Virus record (IMG/VR): IMGVR_UViG_2802429219_000017
Coordinates: 1 to 20,241 of that record
Origin: a virus
Lineage: Duplodnaviria > Heunggongvirae > Uroviricota > Caudoviricetes
DNA: 20,241 bases
Strand: one strand, 5' to 3'
The notes under the pieces are model-generated. The model was not told where the DNA came from, searched no databases, and worked only from the letters and a program-made list of their open reading frames with translations. A program made the translations under genes and the position numbers. Every line of letters starts with the position of its first letter. Positions within the stretch are counted from its first letter, which is position 1. Shown here one piece after another: positions 3,707 to 13,211 of the stretch.

Positions 3707-6700
3707 TTAAGCCAGATGCAGTGCTTCAAGACGACGAAGATCAAAGTCGTTTAATTCGTCGGTATAACTTTCGGTTATCGGTGCTGGCCAATTGTTTGTC
3801 TCCAGGGCTTCGTTTATCTGGCGTAGCGTCCGGCGATATTCCTGTCGACCAAGTTCCAGGAGTTCCTGCGAGGCTTCCACGACAGCCACCCAGTGATAGC
3901 CAGCATCTTTGTTGACGAAGATCCAGAAAAATTTGTCCAGGTTTGCCACATCGCAATACATTGCGGCGCTGAGGTGATAATCACGCTCAATAATTTCACG
4001 GTGCAGGCGATCTTTAAGTCGTTCCTGCCGCACATAACCGAGGCTGACTGACTTCACGTCAGCGCAAATGCTTTCGTATGGCAGCCGGATTTCGATATCA
4101 GGACGGACCCTGATTTCCAGCCCGGTTTCTTCATCAAACCCGAAATAGCTGATTTCAGATTTGCGATCCGGGTGGTTGAGTAGCCTTGCTGCATCGGTAT
4201 TGTTTTGCAGTGCCGCGTGAATATTTTTTGCCTGTTCATACATATCCGGACTGATAAACGTTTTCCCGGCGTTTTCTTCTTGCTGGCGTTTTTGCCAGTC
4301 CTCCAGTGTCACCAGTTCCGGGCGAATTTTCCGTGCGATTTCGGTTAATTGCTCTTTTGTGCCACTGATGTTGTAAGGCAAAGATTTAGCACGTTCTTTT
4401 TTTGCCAGTTCTGGGTCTACAGTTTCAATTTGATCCAGAAGCTGCTCCCGTGCTCCACTGGTTTTCAACAGAGGAGGGAGGCTTGCGTTGTATTCTTTAA
4501 TACAGGCTTTCATTGCTGATGCTGTATGTTTTTCCCCCTCAGGAATACGCCGAAATTCCACCGGAAGCGAACCGTAAAGGATGCCTGTTTCTTCGGCCCC
4601 AGCACTTACAGACAGTGGCTGTATAAGAGTGCTGTTGTAGCTTTCGATCCACTCTTTCATCTGCTCTGGTGTCATCAGTGCTGGCAGACTGGCATTGTGT
4701 TTTTTAATGATGGCGATCAGTTCGTTAGAAGTAGTAACCACATATTCAGGAACCGGTACCGGAATGGCATATTCATCAGCGAATTTATCCGTTTCCAGAA
4801 CATAGCTGTGAATGATCCGCCCACGCAGCAGTGCATCACTTTCCTCGTTCGGAATAGTTCCGGCAATGTGCCGCCCGTGGTAATACATCAGGCTGATACG
4901 GGCATCCTTCAGCATCGTGCTGCTTATTCCGTTGGCGGAGTGATAAACCTCGTTCGGGAGGTTTTCATAGCGGCCTGGCTCGAAATATGACGGCCACATG
5001 ATTTCAGTTGCTACAGGAGCTGACGCTTCACCAGTTTCATCACTGCAATCACGATGCGGATCGCTGCCAGCATTCTCATTGTGCGGATGTTCAGCGCCTT
5101 CCATTTCCACCGGATCTTTTTCCTTAGCTTCAACCTGATTCTCTTCATCGAATGTTTCCTGGTATGTTGCGTCGCCCATTACCGCACCACAGTCAGGGCA
5201 GTTATCCCCGTCAGTCTGACCGCAGGCGGCGCAGACTTTTTCCGGTTCCTGTTGCGCTTCTGGTTCATTTTGTCGCGCATTTTGGCCGTTTTGTTCCGAT
5301 TTTCGGTCGTTCTGTTCCGTTTTTGGCTGATGCTGGTACACAGAATCGCGGGTCTGGATCCCCTTAACCCATTTCGGATCATTCGGGTCGCTAATCCCTT
5401 CAACAAATTCTCCGCGATAGGCAGCCAGTAATTTGTCTGCATCGACAGGATTTTTGGGCGGAATGTTTTTCCGGGCTTCATGGAGTTCTGCCCGCAGTTC
5501 TTGATATTTCGCATCAACAGAATTTACCTGTGACTGAGCATCCAGCGGCTGCGTGTCCTGATGATGTTCAGTTGCGTCCGGTTCCATTGTTTCAGCCTCT
5601 CCCTGTTCATCTGCCGTTGTTCCAGATGGTTGCGGTTTTTCTTCATCATCCTGTTTTCCTTCTTCTGTTACACGCTGCGGCATCGGGGCAGAGGAACGAC
5701 CGCAGGCAATATCCACGATTTCCGGATCAGGGTTGGCATGATCAGTTTCAGTCAGTACTTTGTTCAGATATTCAGTGACGTGCGCGGGGGTGACCTCGAT
5801 CCCAATTGGTGCTTCTTTCACGGACGCAACCACGATGGCGCGGGAATAATCCAGCCCGCCAGGCATGGTGATGAATTTGTCGCGGAAAACAGAAAAGGGC
5901 GGTTTATTTTCAGCGATAATTTCCTCAATGCGTTTAGCGTGTGCCGGATGAAGGTTATAAATGTCCACGTCCATTGAACGGGCCAGTACGCCAGTGGCTA
6001 CGTCGCGCGCCAGCGACGTCAGATCGTGGACGAAACCTTCGCCGCGATCGGTGAGGTTCCCGCCGCCAGCATTAGCACCGGAAGCCATGCGCGTGATGCG
6101 TGAAACACGATTCCCTTTTCGCCATTCTTTTGTCAGAAGACCGCGATCAATGTGTTCGGTATCCAGCCAGGCTGAAATGAAATTCTTAAATTCATAGGGC
6201 TGATGTTTTTTCGTGATAGAGAAAACCCCCTTAATTGCATCAGTCAGGCGGAGCAGGGCGGCATTATCCAGAGTTGTCGGTTCTGCCATGCCGCGTATGG
6301 CCAACAGCAGATTCTGGACATAGCTGTTTTCCTGATCCATCTCAAGAGCAGTAATGTGTTCGCGTTGTTCTCGGGTGGCATGATGCAGGTATTTCCGATC
6401 CCCGGCCGCATAGGTAAAAATGTGCAGAAGACGCTGTGTGAACCGCAAAGTGGCTACAGAGACTTCGCAATCCTGGCAATCCTCGTGGGCGTCTGCCTGC
6501 GTGTTTTCTTCCTGGCCTCCCGCCAGTTCTTTGGTTTCTTGAGCATTATCCTGGTGGTGAACGTCGTCTGGCGCTGCTCCCGGTTTTAGTTCCCAGGTCA
6601 TGGAGTCTTTGCTGAGTTGATAGCGTTCACTCCAGGTAAAATCGATCTCACCTTCAGGGGGCAGGTCATTAACGACAGGAAAATTCGTGGCAACAGCTTT

Positions 6701-8989: not shown

Positions 8990-9397
8990 TTATTGATGTT
9001 TGTTACGTTTGCGAGCTTCTAGTAGCTCGGTGAATAGGCGATTAAAATTCTCAACGCGGGCACGGAGTTCGCTGATTTGTGCTTGCTGCTCTGATTTTGG
9101 AAGTGCGCGATACAATCGCAACATCTCCAACTCATCTTCCGATAAGTCTAAGGCGCTGTTGAGTGCAACTGGTGGATCTGGTGTTTTATCCTCGTCACCA
9201 AACAGTATCCAAGTTGGTGAACATTGCAATACCTCAGCCAGGCGATGCAAATTTTGCCCGCGCGGGGCTGTATGGTCGCTTTCCCATAGTGAAATTGATG
9301 AGCCAGATACGCCAGCAGCTTTGCTTAAATCGTTTTGACTTAAACCAACCTGTTTGCGTCTTTCTCTAATTCGTTGACCTAAAGTTTTCTCGTTCAT
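8990..9397 (-). CDS. dicA: Prophage repressor, DicA-type XRE-family HTH protein (135 aa, no peptidase domain)
   Basis: HTH region LGQRIRERRKQVGLSQNDLSKAAGVS... and the ...LQCSPTWILFGDEDK... segment match my memory of Qin DicA, which is also 135 aa. Confidence 0.8.
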   Translation of the reverse strand: MNEKTLGQRIRERRKQVGLSQNDLSKAAGVSGSSISLWESDHTAPRGQNLHRLAEVLQCSPTWILFGDEDKTPDPPVALNSALDLSEDELEMLRLYRALPKSEQQAQISELRARVENFNRLFTELLEARKRNKHQ

Positions 9398-9418: not shown

Positions 9419-9448
9419 TTGACTTGAGATTCCTTGAGTGATTACTAT
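9419..9448 (+). promoter_or_regulatory. PR-like rightward early promoter (-35 TTGACT, -10 TACTAT) with TTGAG repeats
   Basis: TTGACT at 9419-9424, 17-18 nt spacer, TTACTA/TACTAT at 9442-9448. Direct TTGAG repeats sit in the spacer. Confidence 0.5.
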
Positions 9449-9461
9449 TGAGAAAACTCAA
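9448..9461. promoter_or_regulatory. Operator OR: perfect 14-bp palindrome TTGAGAAAACTCAA at the PR start site
   Basis: Perfect inverted repeat immediately downstream of the PR -10, just upstream of the cro-like SD. Confidence 0.6.
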
Positions 9462-9474
9462 CTTTGGAGGGGTG

Positions 9475-9702
9475 ATGTTTAAATCAGACGTAATTAATTT
9501 TTATGGGACGAAAGCCAAAGTAGCGAAAGCTGCTGGTGTTGATCCATCCGCTGTTTCTCAATGGGGGGAACTGGTTCCTGAAGGTCGCGCGATGCGCCTG
9601 CAAGAGGCATCCGGCGGGGAACTTCAGTATGACCCCAAAGTTTATGACGAATATCGTAAGGCAAAGCGGGCGGGGAAGGTGATTCATGAAAATCAGGCAT
9701 GA
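9475..9702 (+). CDS. dicC: Cro-like regulator, DicC-type (75 aa)
   Basis: MFKSDVINFYGTKAKVAKAAGVDPSAVSQWGELVPEGRAMRLQEASGGELQYDPKVYDEYRK... resembles DicC. GGAGGGG SD precedes the ATG at 9475; the track ORF begins with TTG at 9448. Confidence 0.7.
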   Translation: MFKSDVINFYGTKAKVAKAAGVDPSAVSQWGELVPEGRAMRLQEASGGELQYDPKVYDEYRKAKRAGKVIHENQA

Positions 9703-10111
9703 GCACATCGAATCAGTGCTGTTAGCCCTGGCAGCCGAAAAAGGGCAGGCGTGGGTCGCTAACGCAATTACTGAAGAATATCTGCGCCAGGGGGGGGGCG
9801 GCGAATTACCCCTGGTACCAGGCAAGGACTGGAACAATCAGCAGAATATCTATCACCGCTGGTTGAAAGGTGAAACGGAAGCGCAAAGGGAAAAAATTCA
9901 GAAACTGATCCCTGCAATTCTGGCAATCCTTCCGCGCGAGCTGCGCCACCGATTCAGCATCTTCGATACCCTGGAACGCCGTGCATTACTGGCGGCGCAG
10001 GAAGCGTTGAGTACGGCAATTGATGCGCATGATGATGCAGTCCAAGCCGTTTACCGGAAAGCGCATTTCAGCGGTGGTGGGTCGTCCGACGATTCTGCTG
10101 TTGTTCATTAA
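9686..10111 (+). CDS. ydaT: YdaT (CII-like fold), 141 aa
   Basis: MKIRHEHIESVLLALAAEKGQAWVANAITEEYLRQGGGG... is near-identical to my memory of Rac YdaT. AAGGTGA SD; overlaps the cro-like stop. Confidence 0.85.
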   Translation: MKIRHEHIESVLLALAAEKGQAWVANAITEEYLRQGGGGELPLVPGKDWNNQQNIYHRWLKGETEAQREKIQKLIPAILAILPRELRHRFSIFDTLERRALLAAQEALSTAIDAHDDAVQAVYRKAHFSGGGSSDDSAVVH

Positions 10112-10130
10112 GTGAATAGGGTAACTAACA

Positions 10131-10544
10131 ATGAAAATCAAACCGTTTATCAATGCTGGAAATCTTACTCCCGGCGAACTACGAGACTGGATCCTGAAAC
10201 TTGCAAAAAATGCAGAAATTGCGGGTTGGGGTACAGAAACTTCGGTTCGGAAGCTTCAGAGCGCAGAACTTAGCCTGCGCTCAGTTATGGACGATTTATC
10301 CCCAAGAATTAATTTTCTGGGGTCAGAGCAAATAATTCGTTCGGAAGGTCACTCCAGCGAAGTTGCGGAAGTTCTGAATACTTTGAGGATAACTTTTGCT
10401 GCCGTTCGCGATATTCAACGAACCATTCTCTCATTGATTTCTCAGCTTCAAGAAATTGATAGTCGCATTCCTGATGGGGGTCATAGAGAGCGTCTTCCAG
10501 AATGTGAAGAGCAAGGACAGGAGAAACAGATAAGGGATCAGTAA
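10131..10544 (+). CDS. Hypothetical protein (137 aa) directly after ydaT; overlaps a convergent ORF
   Basis: Open frame starting 19 nt after the ydaT stop, with protein-like helical composition and a weak SD. Its 3' 236 nt overlap the minus-strand ORF 10309-10764. Confidence 0.4.
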   Translation: MKIKPFINAGNLTPGELRDWILKLAKNAEIAGWGTETSVRKLQSAELSLRSVMDDLSPRINFLGSEQIIRSEGHSSEVAEVLNTLRITFAAVRDIQRTILSLISQLQEIDSRIPDGGHRERLPECEEQGQEKQIRDQ

Positions 10545-10764
10545 TACGTTTTTCACTTGCCTGGTATAGCAATCTCGCCAGCGAATCATAGTTACTGGGA
10601 CTCAGGAGAGAATCTCGTGAGTGATTTGTAAGAAGTAGATGGAAGCGGGTGAGAACTATAGCCCTGCATGTTACCAGGTTAACCATGTCGTGGTCGTGCT
10701 GGTTAATTTTGTACACAGTGCGCATGTGATTTTTAATTTTTTGGCAAACAGCCATTAAAGACAT
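10309..10764 (-). CDS. Hypothetical protein (151 aa) with its own -10 and strong SD, divergent from the replication gene
   Basis: AAGGAGGT SD 5 nt before the ATG at 10764. Perfect minus-strand -10 TATAAT at 10804-10809, ~33 nt upstream of the ATG. No recognisable family. Confidence 0.5.
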   Translation of the reverse strand: MSLMAVCQKIKNHMRTVYKINQHDHDMVNLVTCRAIVLTRFHLLLTNHSRDSLLSPSNYDSLARLLYQASEKRITDPLSVSPVLALHILEDALYDPHQECDYQFLEAEKSMREWFVEYRERQQKLSSKYSELPQLRWSDLPNELFALTPEN

Positions 10765-10843
10765 GTCGAACCTCCTTTGGTTCTGTTGATTGGGGAATCA
10801 CAGATTATATCCGGAGGAAGGTTCGACACCAGATGAGGCAATT

Positions 10844-11968
10844 ATGGTTAAGGCTAAAAACATGCCAAATCCCATGCCAAAAACTAAGGCAAACAATGAG
10901 CCTTATCGCAAGGTAAAAATAACGATATGGGATGATCCCAAATTTAGGGCGTTATCTCCTCTGCCTCCAAGTGGACAGAGTTTGTTTATTTATCTGCTGA
11001 CCAGTCCATTTACCGGGATTATTCCTGGGTTGTTTAAAGCCGGGCGGGCAGCAATGGCTGAAGAGTTGGGGTGGGATATCGAAGCCTTTGACTTAGCCTT
11101 AGGCGAAGCCATGAATCTTGGCATGGTGAAAGCAGATATCAAAGCCAGAGTTTTTTGGCTCCCGAATGCTGCGAAACACAATCCGCCAAACTCGATAAAT
11201 GTCATTAAATCCTGGGCAAAGGCATTCGCTTTAATTCCTGACTGCCCTCTCAAATGGGAGGCCAGGGAATCGCTGAGAGCCGCGTCCTACGGGGTTTCTG
11301 AGGCTTTGGGGATGGCATTCGATAAGGCAATCCCTTTGCCTGAGGATAAGCCTAAGGATAAGGCTAACGCTTTGTCATGCGGTATCCAGATAACAGATAA
11401 CAGATATATAAACCCCACACATAACGCGCGCGTGCGCGAGAGTGCTCCGGCCAGTGAGGCAAATGGCGTGCCGTTGCAGACAGCGGAACCTGATTACCTG
11501 GAAGGCCTGAGCGAACCCATCGGGAAATTTCCGATGACCGATGGCTGGCATCCGTCGCCGGATTTTCGACGACGGGCTGCGCTGTGGGGCGTGGCTCTTC
11601 CTGAGCCGGAATTTACACCAGCTGAACTTGCCGCCTTCCGGGACTACTGGGCAGCGGAGGGGAAAGTATTTACGCAGATTCAGTGGGAGCAGAAATTCGC
11701 CCGTCACGTAAATCACGTCAGGGCGCAGGTTAAACCAGTCAGCAAGGGGGTGAGCCATGCAGCCGCACCAGGTGGCACCGCATCACGGGCAGTTCAGGAA
11801 ATTCGGGCAGCACGTGAGCAGTGGGAACGTGAAAACGGATTTATCAGCGACGGAAACGGCGTGGAAGCTGTGGGAACTCATGGGGGAGGTTTATTCGAAC
11901 CGCTGGACCCAGAAGAACGGGGCCGCACCTTCGAAGCTCTGGATTGCACAGATTGGCGCGATGACTGA
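10844..11968 (+). CDS. Putative replication initiation protein (O-like slot; YdaU/DnaT-like C-terminal motif)
   Basis: Large ORF in the lambda O position. C-terminal ...[31 protein letters not shown]... resembles phage replication/primosomal proteins. GAGG SD favours the ATG at 10844; the track ORF starts with TTG at 10790. The last ~70 codons overlap the next gene. Confidence 0.6.
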
Positions 11969-12422
11969 GCAGCAAATCCGTCAGGTCTGCCGCCAGTGCA
12001 TGGACCGCTGCCGGGCGGGTGAAACATGGCCTCCGGACCTGGCTGAGTTTGTGGCGCTGATTTCGGAGAGTGGGGCAAATCCATTTGGTCTGACGGTGGA
12101 TGCTGTGATGGAGGAGTACCGCCGCTGGCGCAATGAGTCCTGGCGATACGACGGAAGTGATAAGTACCCGTGGTCTCAGCCCGTGCTGTATCACATTTGC
12201 CTCGAGATGCGTTCAAAGGGGATTGAGCGCCAGATGACCGAAGGGGAGTTAAAACGGCTTGCAGAACGGCAACTGACGAAATGGGCAAAGCATGTTGGTA
12301 ATGGCCTCAGTGTTCCGCCCGTCCGGCGGCAACTGGCAGCACCAAAACGCCCGTCGGGGCCAACACCAATTGAGTTGCTGAAACAGGAATATGAACGCCG
12401 GAAAGCGGCTGGTTTTGTTTGA
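11757..12422 (+). CDS. Lambda P-like replication protein (helicase loader)
   Basis: ...[36 protein letters not shown]...YPW... aligns by eye with the central and C-terminal parts of lambda P. AAGGGGGTGAG SD precedes the ATG at 11757; alternative starts at 11880 and 11961. Confidence 0.65.
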
Positions 12423-12455: not shown

Positions 12456-13211
12456 ATGGAGACCGTTTTTGACGCACTGAAAGCGATGGGAAAGGCCACG
12501 TCGGCAGAACTGGCTGCGCGACTTGATATCAGTCGAGAAGAAGTGCTGAACGAACTATGGGAACTGAAAAAGGCTGGTTTCGTTGATAAAAGCGCGTACA
12601 CCTGGCGTGTGGCTGATAACAACGTTCAGCAGGAACAGCCAGCGCCGGCAGAACTGCCGGAAGAAACCACCACGGCGACAGTAGCGAAAATCTCAGAGTG
12701 CGATTTAACCGCGACGATTGAACAACGCGGACCACAAACGGCGGATGAGCTGGCTACATTGTTTGGTACCACATCACGCAAAGTGGCTTCAACGCTGGCA
12801 ATGGCAATCAGCAAAGGTCGTCTGATTCGCGTAAATCAGGGCGGTAAATTTCGTTACTGCATACCGGGCGATAATTTACCAGCAGAGCCGAAAGCAGCAT
12901 CGGTAGCGGAAACTGATGGTAAGGCCTTTCCTCAGCCCGCAGGTGTTGCGTTACCAGTACAGGAGGCTGCAACACAGGAAGAAATTAAAACAGAAACTGT
13001 GGCGGACATTGTGCAGTCGCTGCCATCGTTTACTGCAACGCGATCTGATGATTTGATTTTGCCATCGCTGCATTTGGCAAACCGCGAACTGCGTCGGGCG
13101 AAAAATCATGTCCGGAAGTGGGAGCGTGTCTGCGCCGCGCTGCGGGAGCTGAATAAATATCGCGATATTGTCGCCCAGCTTTGCCAGGAGGAAACCAGTG
13201 AGCAACATTAA
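12456..13211 (+). CDS. Hypothetical protein with two winged-helix-like domains (251 aa)
   Basis: GGGAGGAAA SD. N-terminal and central segments each look like a winged helix-turn-helix; the C-terminus is basic and helical. Confidence 0.6.

Follow-up and report, generated by a model that had tools for sequence, protein, structure and literature searches.

The window analysed here, a stretch of 20,241 nucleotides (nt) from a virus of the Caudoviricetes (IMG/VR record IMGVR_UViG_2802429219_000017), contains two convergent genes, termed A and B, in the interval between ydaT and the replication genes. Both are very probably genuine protein-coding genes and form a true dual-coding pair. Comparison with divergent relatives shows that about 150 nt (10309 to 10457) simultaneously encode the conserved C-terminal residues (approximately 50) of B and of A. 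The last 28 codons of A were shown to be an unconstrained, dispensable and disordered read-on tail. The genes are arranged tail to tail and share 236 nt (10309 to 10544), which are subdivided as follows:

10131 to 10544, plus strand: gene A, 137 amino acids (aa), ATG start, third cistron of the early-right (PR-type) operon
10309 to 10764, minus strand: gene B, 151 aa, ATG at 10764, transcribed leftward
10309 to 10457 (approximately 150 nt), both strands: dual-coding core, A codons 60 to 109 and B codons 102 to 151 plus the B stop codon
10458 to 10544 (approximately 86 nt), plus strand: read-on tail of A, codons 110 to 137 plus stop codon, running across B codons 74 to 101

The coordinates of both open reading frames (ORFs), the 236-nt overlap, the 19-nt gap between the ydaT stop codon (10111) and the start of A, the TATAAT hexamer (10809 to 10804) and the Shine-Dalgarno (SD) sequence AAGGAGGT ahead of B were listed in a preliminary description of the locus and were all found again. 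That description left the choice between a true antiparallel pair and a shadow frame undecided. The true pair is now favoured, since both frames are open at 40 to 58% protein identity, coding periodicity is present outside the overlap, and synonymous sites are mutually constrained in 10309 to 10457. ORF length and a protein-like appearance alone are within chance; shadow ORFs exceeding 100 codons frequently occur antisense to real genes in the window (9484 to 9837, 11375 to 11758 and 11878 to 12288 on the minus strand, 4526 to 4990 on the plus strand). It is the comparative evidence and a re-encoding simulation that lift the pair above chance. Within the overlap, first codon positions of A are opposite first positions of B, second opposite third, and third opposite second, so that hardly any site is silent in both genes.

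Selection on the two frames was compared by codon position in eight lineages, the proteins of which are roughly 40 to 60% identical. The nucleotide identities at codon positions 1, 2 and 3 were:

Non-overlapping part of B, B frame: 0.58, 0.71 and 0.47
Non-overlapping part of A, A frame: 0.51, 0.62 and 0.40
Core (A codons 60 to 109, B codons 102 to 151), B frame: 0.76, 0.76 and 0.72
Core, A frame: 0.79, 0.73 and 0.77
Opposite the last 28 codons of A, B frame: 0.70, 0.80 and 0.37
Opposite the last 28 codons of A, A frame: 0.67, 0.38 and 0.73

This codon-periodicity check, which had been suggested for the locus, yielded a normal coding pattern for the non-overlapping halves of both A and B. In the core, all three codon positions are conserved, read in either frame, and the nucleotide identity profile is highest there (10307 to 10456). 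In the tail region, B evolves as an ordinary gene, while the pattern of the A frame is anti-coding. Where the amino acid is identical, the fraction of identical B codons is 0.47 outside the overlap and 0.39 opposite the A tail, compared to 0.75 in the core. The amino acid identity of the A frame is 0.58 in the core versus 0.26 in the tail, at similar conservation of B. The tail of A serves as an internal negative control for dual coding. Purifying selection in both frames was found for 10309 to 10457 and not for 10458 to 10544; the suspected antiparallel overlap is upheld for the former stretch, whereas its last approximately 86 nt are an unconstrained extension of A.

When B was re-encoded with random synonymous codons, the A frame remained open in only 5 to 30% of the trials per lineage, and when A was re-encoded, the B frame remained open in only 0.4 to 6%. 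Both frames are open in the divergent relatives, beyond the chance given by these values. The stop codon of A (10542 to 10544) is the complement of B codon 74 (Ile/Val, NTT) and the following Thr codon 75, which begins with adenine. Its position recurs among lineages because these conserved Ile/Val-Thr codons of B supply the stop.

At least ten lineages from Escherichia, Salmonella, Serratia and metagenomes possess both ORFs, with proteins that are 40 to 58% identical and overlaps of 158 to 239 nt (236, 236, 236, 212, 158, 236, 233, 239 and 236 nt in nine lineages; 179 nt in L165). Loss of one frame in relatives that conserve the other, which the preliminary description named as evidence against a gene pair, was not seen among them. 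Homologues of B reach down to 50% identity (Salmonella, Serratia and metagenomes), and the full-length ones all comprise 151 aa without insertions or deletions. In the DNA of the distant B loci, a homologous A-type ORF was present opposite B in every case. In Serratia (L004) it encodes 139 aa and overlaps B by 236 nt, in Salmonella (L006) it is open with an overlap of 212 nt, and neither of these two loci has ydaT; the same arrangement was found in L007, L032, L034, L040 and L042 (158 to 239 nt). L007, L006 and L165 have a shorter A tail or none. A search with the single A sequence retrieved only homologues of at least 85% identity, a limitation to close relatives that arises because gene callers disallow such overlaps, whereas a profile search recovered 22 called A proteins, one of them from Klebsiella. 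Both genes have translation start signals of their own, an invariant AAGGAGGT-N5-ATG for B and, in most lineages, a recognisable SD sequence for A. The pair and its leader also occur outside the cro/ydaT context, namely in L040 (Salmonella) and L007 (metagenome); one of these copies is located beside Cox, Ash and integrase genes of a P2-like or satellite-like element, the other amid transposase fragments.

The AlphaFold model of A comprises three helices (residues 14 to 31, 35 to 64 and 72 to 112) with a predicted local distance difference test (pLDDT) value above 90 for residues 41 to 110. From residue 116 onwards (116 to 137) the model is disordered (pLDDT below 50), so the confidence profile, a confident core followed by a disordered tail, agrees with the selection data. 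Invariant residues of A are R59, I60, L63, S65 and I68. The model of B is all-helical and the C-terminal 24 residues are modelled as disordered. The strongest conservation in B is the C-terminal motif LPEL.W.DLP.ELF, located inside the overlap, of which L132, W137, D139 and P141 are invariant in 23 diverse sequences. The modelled disorder of this motif would be in line with a binding motif. An exhaustive HMMER search with the B profile yielded 23 clusters among 1.84 billion representatives, all of the approximately 150 to 160-aa type, and no tie to any known domain. Neither protein had a match in Pfam, NCBIfam or PADLOC (PADLOC-DB 2.0, E ≤ 1). The sole PHROGs match of A was phrog_37051, a family of unknown function, and no PHROGs family exists for B. 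A type II toxin-antitoxin system was not indicated either, the genes being convergent instead of co-directional and without Pfam or NCBIfam toxin or antitoxin match.

It is unlikely that the two genes are real and the segment from 10309 to 10457 is nevertheless conserved as a nucleic-acid element (for RNA-RNA pairing, processing or termination), with the N-terminal halves as the functional domains. Such an element would fit the homology to a related cassette of Escherichia coli O157:H7 (ECs1072 and its partner, see below), which extends over the N-terminal parts of A and B only, as well as the modelled disorder at the C-terminus of B and an internal leftward transcription start of strain EDL933 (1256773) in the corresponding 3' part of ECs1072. 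However, the conservation obeys amino acid logic in both frames, as seen from the invariant residues of B (L132, W137, D139 and P141) and A (R59, I60, L63, S65 and I68), residues 72 to 112 of A form a helix with pLDDT above 90, and the region has neither a terminator-like site nor an Rfam match.

The window belongs to a lambdoid prophage of the Rac/CP-933 type and includes its immunity and early region. The genes surrounding the pair and the signals upstream of B are:

8990 to 9397, minus strand: cI-like repressor
9448 to 9702, plus strand: Cro/YdaS-like gene
9686 to 10111, plus strand: ydaT (cII-like), the stop codon of which is the left edge of the swappable cassette
10762 to 10833: conserved block of approximately 70 bp from the B ATG to the SD/ATG (10844) of the replication gene, with promoter and translation start of B inside
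10770 to 10777, minus strand: SD of B, AAGGAGGT, separated by 5 nt from the ATG (10764) and unchanged in every leader examined
10804 to 10809, minus strand: -10 hexamer TATAAT of the B promoter, overlapping the invariant TAnnnT columns at 10807 to 10802
10832 to 10827, minus strand: weak -35 hexamer CTGGTG, 17-nt spacer to TATAAT
10841 to 10868, minus strand: second candidate leftward promoter, TTGGCA-16-CATAAT, 10/12 matches, inside the start of the replication gene
10844, plus strand: likely ATG start of the replication gene (DnaT domain)

The annotated starts of the replication gene (10790 to 11968 in the window) disagree, with TTG at 10790 in the mechanical ORF, ATG at 10844 in the phage record and a start approximately 210 nt further inside according to the Prokaryotic Genome Annotation Pipeline (PGAP). 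The ATG at 10844, preceded by GAGG (10834 to 10837), is the start that fits the layout of the conserved block.

By its sequence, B has its own sigma-70 promoter, and the homologous promoter of EDL933 is shown to fire in uninduced cultures. The autonomous signals noted for B in the preliminary description were thereby substantiated: the -10 hexamer lies within the approximately 70-bp block, which is better conserved than the A and B proteins themselves, and T, A and T of the TAnnnT hexamer are invariant in 30 of 30 divergent leaders. Many of these have an extended TGn; a TTG-type -35 hexamer lies 17 to 18 nt upstream. The best hexamer fit in this window is TATAAT with the 17-nt spacer. The EDL933 leader, which precedes ECs1072, is 93% identical to that of the window. 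A leftward start was mapped there by Cappable-seq at 1257177, 31 nt before the ECs1072 ATG and 8 nt past the same TATAAT, and was found in most of eight non-inducing conditions (PMC10469882). By homology, the B transcript would start at about 10796. ECs1072 was also detected on arrays in uninduced strain Sakai (PMC2241611). The Cappable-seq data further list the internal leftward start at 1256773, in the 3' (overlapping) part of ECs1072, in all eight conditions, and no rightward start within or just before the partner gene (PMC10469882). As regards transcription of both strands, the leftward start is mapped in the homologous EDL933 leader only, and rightward transcription is deduced from the position of A in the early-right operon. 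No terminator-like site was found on the minus strand after B, so that the B transcript probably spans all of A.

A second leftward start in EDL933 (1257310, minus strand) is located 164 nt upstream of the ECs1072 ATG (PMC10469882). This site is not homologous in sequence to the TTGGCA-16-CATAAT of the window. It would give a leader with an entire hairpin and a paired SD; the second candidate promoter of the window (10841 to 10868) would likewise yield a long leader with the whole hairpin. This hairpin (10762 to 10830) can be formed by the arms of the block (CGAACCTTCC and GGAGGTTCG). It ends a few bases ahead of the SD of the replication gene, and its inner stem shows compensatory changes. 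In 27 of the 30 lineages it is more stable in the rightward RNA than in the B sense (mean -31.5 versus -24.2 kcal/mol). When the structure is kept fixed, the outer helix has equal pairing fractions on both strands; the helix of the 5' arm is nearly invariant, so covariation is little informative. The hairpin lacks a U-tract and is therefore not an intrinsic terminator; it could be a processing or stability element. An Rfam search with both strands of 9900 to 11000 gave nothing near threshold. A long B mRNA leader that hides the SD was rejected as the main form, since the 5' arm lies between the -35 and -10 hexamers and the mapped EDL933 start is downstream of this arm.

The published YdaT box of Rac is ATGATT-N6-AATCAA (PMC11879457), and it is matched by GTGATTcatgaaAATCAG at 9679 to 9696, spanning the ydaT start codon. 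The same half-sites with a spacing of 4 nt (GTGATTccccAATCAA, minus strand) are found in the +1 region of the B promoter (10784 to 10801), and a perfect CTGATT-N6-AATCAG palindrome is located at 12822 to 12839 within a DUF1627-type gene. Binding of YdaT in the leader was considered and not adopted: the half-sites are box-like, but the spacing is 4 instead of 6 nt, and the leaders in prophages without ydaT differ.

The geometry of B had been likened to that of the lambda oop RNA, and this comparison holds in part. As with oop and its promoter Po, the B promoter is leftward, lies between cII-type and replication genes, and yields a transcript antisense to the early-right operon. The lambda oop RNA is a non-coding RNA of 77 nt ending inside cII, whereas the B transcript is an mRNA for a conserved protein of 151 aa and overlaps the protein-coding gene A, not ydaT. 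No sequence similarity or common Rfam match was found between the two. The features of an oop-type RNA (a short non-coding transcript with an intrinsic terminator in the cII-type gene) were not found; instead, a 151-codon ORF is present, and the minus strand has no terminator-like site. That the leftward transcript is chiefly an antisense RNA damping the expression of A, ydaT and the early-right region, with the B protein being secondary, is considered very improbable. The position and direction of the promoter and a transcript that probably spans the whole of A, and may extend to ydaT, would be in line with such a device, but purifying selection acts on the B protein along its full length. 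Moreover, the same block drives at least nine unrelated protein-coding cargo genes, which argues that its constant part is an expression signal and not an antisense target. A role at the RNA level may exist alongside the B protein.

The annotation of the locus is inconsistent, and pipelines mostly list just one of the two genes. PGAP annotates only A in E. coli, one phage record contains both genes, and gene callers applied to metagenomes give only B. There is scant probability that B is the only gene and A a shadow ORF, kept open because the B sequence avoids stops on the opposite strand. Compatible with this are the calling of B alone in distant relatives, the close homologues (at least 85% identity) returned by the single-sequence search with A, the shadow-like behaviour of its last 28 codons and its weak SD in the window. 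Against it, the first 59 codons of A, which lie outside B, show coding periodicity (0.51/0.62/0.40), the synonymous sites of B are frozen solely opposite the A core (0.75 versus 0.39 to 0.47), and the A frame is open in all lineages, compared to 5 to 30% of the trials after re-encoding of B. The 22 called A proteins from the profile search, the confident model of A and its homology to the ECs1072 partner family point in the same direction. The converse, A as the only gene (as annotated by NCBI for E. coli) and B as a shadow frame, is even less probable. In its favour, PGAP annotates A alone (WP_000695003.1) in strain 06-00048, and PHROGs contains a family for A but not for B. Against it, B is 151 aa long without insertions or deletions across genera at 50% identity, its consensus SD and its ATG are invariant, its non-overlapping part shows coding periodicity (0.58/0.71/0.47), its frame stays open in just 0.4 to 6% of A re-encodings, and the homologous promoter is experimentally active.

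For the dual-coding pair, the following mode of expression is proposed. A would have no promoter of its own and be read from the early-right operon, hence be made only once the prophage repressor is gone. Early-right transcripts bound for the replication genes would cross B in antisense, head-on against the B promoter, and every B transcript would cross A in antisense. Transcriptional interference and RNA duplex formation would make the expression of the two genes mutually exclusive, and because of this mutual crossing A and B are expected in alternative states. Such exclusive expression, with B made in the lysogen and A following induction or infection, is somewhat more probable than not. B might be an accessory protein of the lysogen with a role in, e.g., the exclusion of other phages or the modulation of the host. 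A might be its partner in the lytic phase, in the simplest case by neutralising B so that the phage's own growth is spared. These effector and neutraliser roles are proposed tentatively. The shared codons would represent a physical coupling that keeps A and B from being separated by recombination. Taken as a whole, the explanation by a dual-coding pair with exclusive expression and these roles is regarded as likely.

Several observations weigh against this explanation. The mapped start belongs to the homologous leader of EDL933, ahead of a different and remotely related cargo gene. The SD of A is weak in this window, and confidence in the B model is low (pLDDT 59). In Trabulsiella (L008, 1505 to 1954), B is intact and the N-terminal half of A is swapped for unrelated sequence, while L166 (2501 to 3597) contains two tandem A-like genes, only the second of which overlaps the B-like gene (194 nt); the coupling of A and B is thus breakable and not absolute. 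The homology of the pair to the ECs1072 cassette ends at the start of the overlap, and the overlapping ends could be less essential than the N-terminal domains. Finally, neither A nor B matched a family of known function, a defence system or an informative fold, so that we infer the effector and neutraliser roles purely from the architecture.

Face-to-face units for which mutually exclusive outputs are expected, as in A/B, are formed by pR/pL of coliphage 186, prgQ/prgX of the Enterococcus plasmid pCF10 and the 'excludons' of Listeria. In these systems, the overlap is located in leaders or untranslated RNA. The overlap of A and B, in contrast, is dual coding, and the interference is a proposal only. 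Antisense overlapping genes in which both strands are protein-coding and which are overlooked by standard annotation have been described in E. coli O157:H7 (nog1, ano, laoB, asa, pop and olo genes) and Pseudomonas aeruginosa (PMC9927249, PMC5960689, PMC8850804). These are mostly young, taxonomically narrow ORFs embedded in an older 'mother' gene, whereas A and B are comparable in age, with the overlap limited to the 3' ends, an independent half outside it in each gene, and conservation of the arrangement across genera (40 to 58% protein identity). BstA and its aba element (PMC8585504) resemble A/B only in the proposed logic, in which an effector is made in the lysogen and a second element protects the prophage's own lytic cycle; BstA has no sequence or structural relation to either protein, and its immunity element is a DNA site and not a protein.

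The block ahead of B is not restricted to this pair. It ends in GAACCnAAGGAGGTTCGACATG, is common to hundreds of lambdoid prophages and is present in 635 of 5426 complete E. coli genomes (about 12%). The SD-proximal motif was found in at least 119 IMG/VR contigs (loci L044 to L162) before at least nine unrelated leftward genes, including ECs1072-family, BssS-family and membrane-protein genes. Most of these cargo genes have a convergent partner of their own, which often overlaps:

ECs1072 family (L044, L057, L063, L078): cargo of 151 to 156 aa, partner overlap 269 to 323 nt
92-99-aa family (L045, L051, L071, L081, L119): cargo of 92 to 99 aa, partner overlap 207 to 273 nt
72-83-aa family (L048, L060, L097, L142): cargo of 72 to 83 aa, partner overlap 0 to 176 nt
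Other cargo: various sizes, partner abutting

Coding periodicity in the non-overlapping parts of both genes was found for the ECs1072 family and the 92-99-aa family. The subtypes of the leader do not track the cargo families. Searches of Pfam, NCBIfam, PADLOC and PHROGs with A, B and nine other cargo or partner proteins gave only families of unknown function, with the exception of one BssS-family cargo gene. Strains L001 and L003 share identical sequence on either side of the cassette, as far as the ydaT stop codon and from the leftward ATG onward, but carry unrelated pairs between these points. This implies that whole pairs are exchanged as units, with junctions exactly at the ydaT stop and the leftward ATG. 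A and B are shown to be co-inherited and exchanged between prophages as a unit.

The closest relative of the A/B pair is the ECs1072 cassette of E. coli O157:H7 (EDL933 and Sakai). Like A/B, this cassette is located between ydaT and the replication genes, and it shares with A/B the promoter block (93% identical), a leftward protein of 151 to 156 aa and a convergent partner with an overlap of 269 to 323 nt. A and the ECs1072 partner family were aligned by hhalign with a probability of 91% (E = 1e-6), B and ECs1072 with 87% (E = 4e-6) over the N-terminal approximately 100 residues. This likeness is confined to the non-overlapping N-terminal parts of both proteins; in contrast to A/B, the overlapping C-terminal parts are unrelated and the dual-coding signal is weaker. 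In a search with the ECs1072 family model (NCBIfam NF033230, curated cut-off 70 bits), B had no match at E ≤ 1, and a distant B homologue scored 18 bits. The partner of ECs1072 in EDL933 (phrog_8304; locus L163, 3072 to 3720) is missing from the PGAP annotation. Neither the pair nor the cassette slot was found to be described in literature searches on accessions, ECs1072, sequence strings, overlapping genes and prophage hotspots.

Among bacteria and phages, long antiparallel overlaps of coding sequences are seldom encountered and frequently contested, since most candidates are young ORFs without conserved relatives. A/B differs from published bacterial antisense genes in that its overlap is tail to tail, joins genes of similar age and is conserved across genera. 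Its promoter has an oop-like position and direction and serves a protein-coding mRNA. The comparative signal is clean because both genes have independent conserved halves, and with the A tail as a built-in negative control the pair is well suited as a benchmark for the detection of dual coding. Direct testing is feasible, since single substitutions can introduce a stop codon into one frame without altering the protein encoded by the other: C10324A and T10384A stop A at codons 65 and 85, C10424T and A10532T stop B at codons 114 and 78. The locus also reveals a systematic annotation gap: NCBI retains the rightward gene A and omits B here, but in the ECs1072 cassette of O157:H7 it retains the leftward gene and omits the partner, for which PHROGs, conversely to NCBI, has a family (phrog_8304).

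For the enterobacterial lambdoid prophages, a speculative generalisation is that they harbour an unrecognised class of swappable, convergent two-gene cassettes, located between the cro/cII-type gene and the replication genes and served by one shared promoter/leader block. The leftward gene would encode an effector expressed in the lysogen and the rightward one its lytic-phase antagonist, with obligatory either/or expression by antisense transcription; long dual-coding 3' overlaps (0 to approximately 320 nt, at least four unrelated families) might have evolved repeatedly and would weld the couples together. One promoter block that drives many unrelated small genes, each with its convergent partner, suggests that the regulatory centre of lambdoid prophages contains a little-explored slot for accessory genes.

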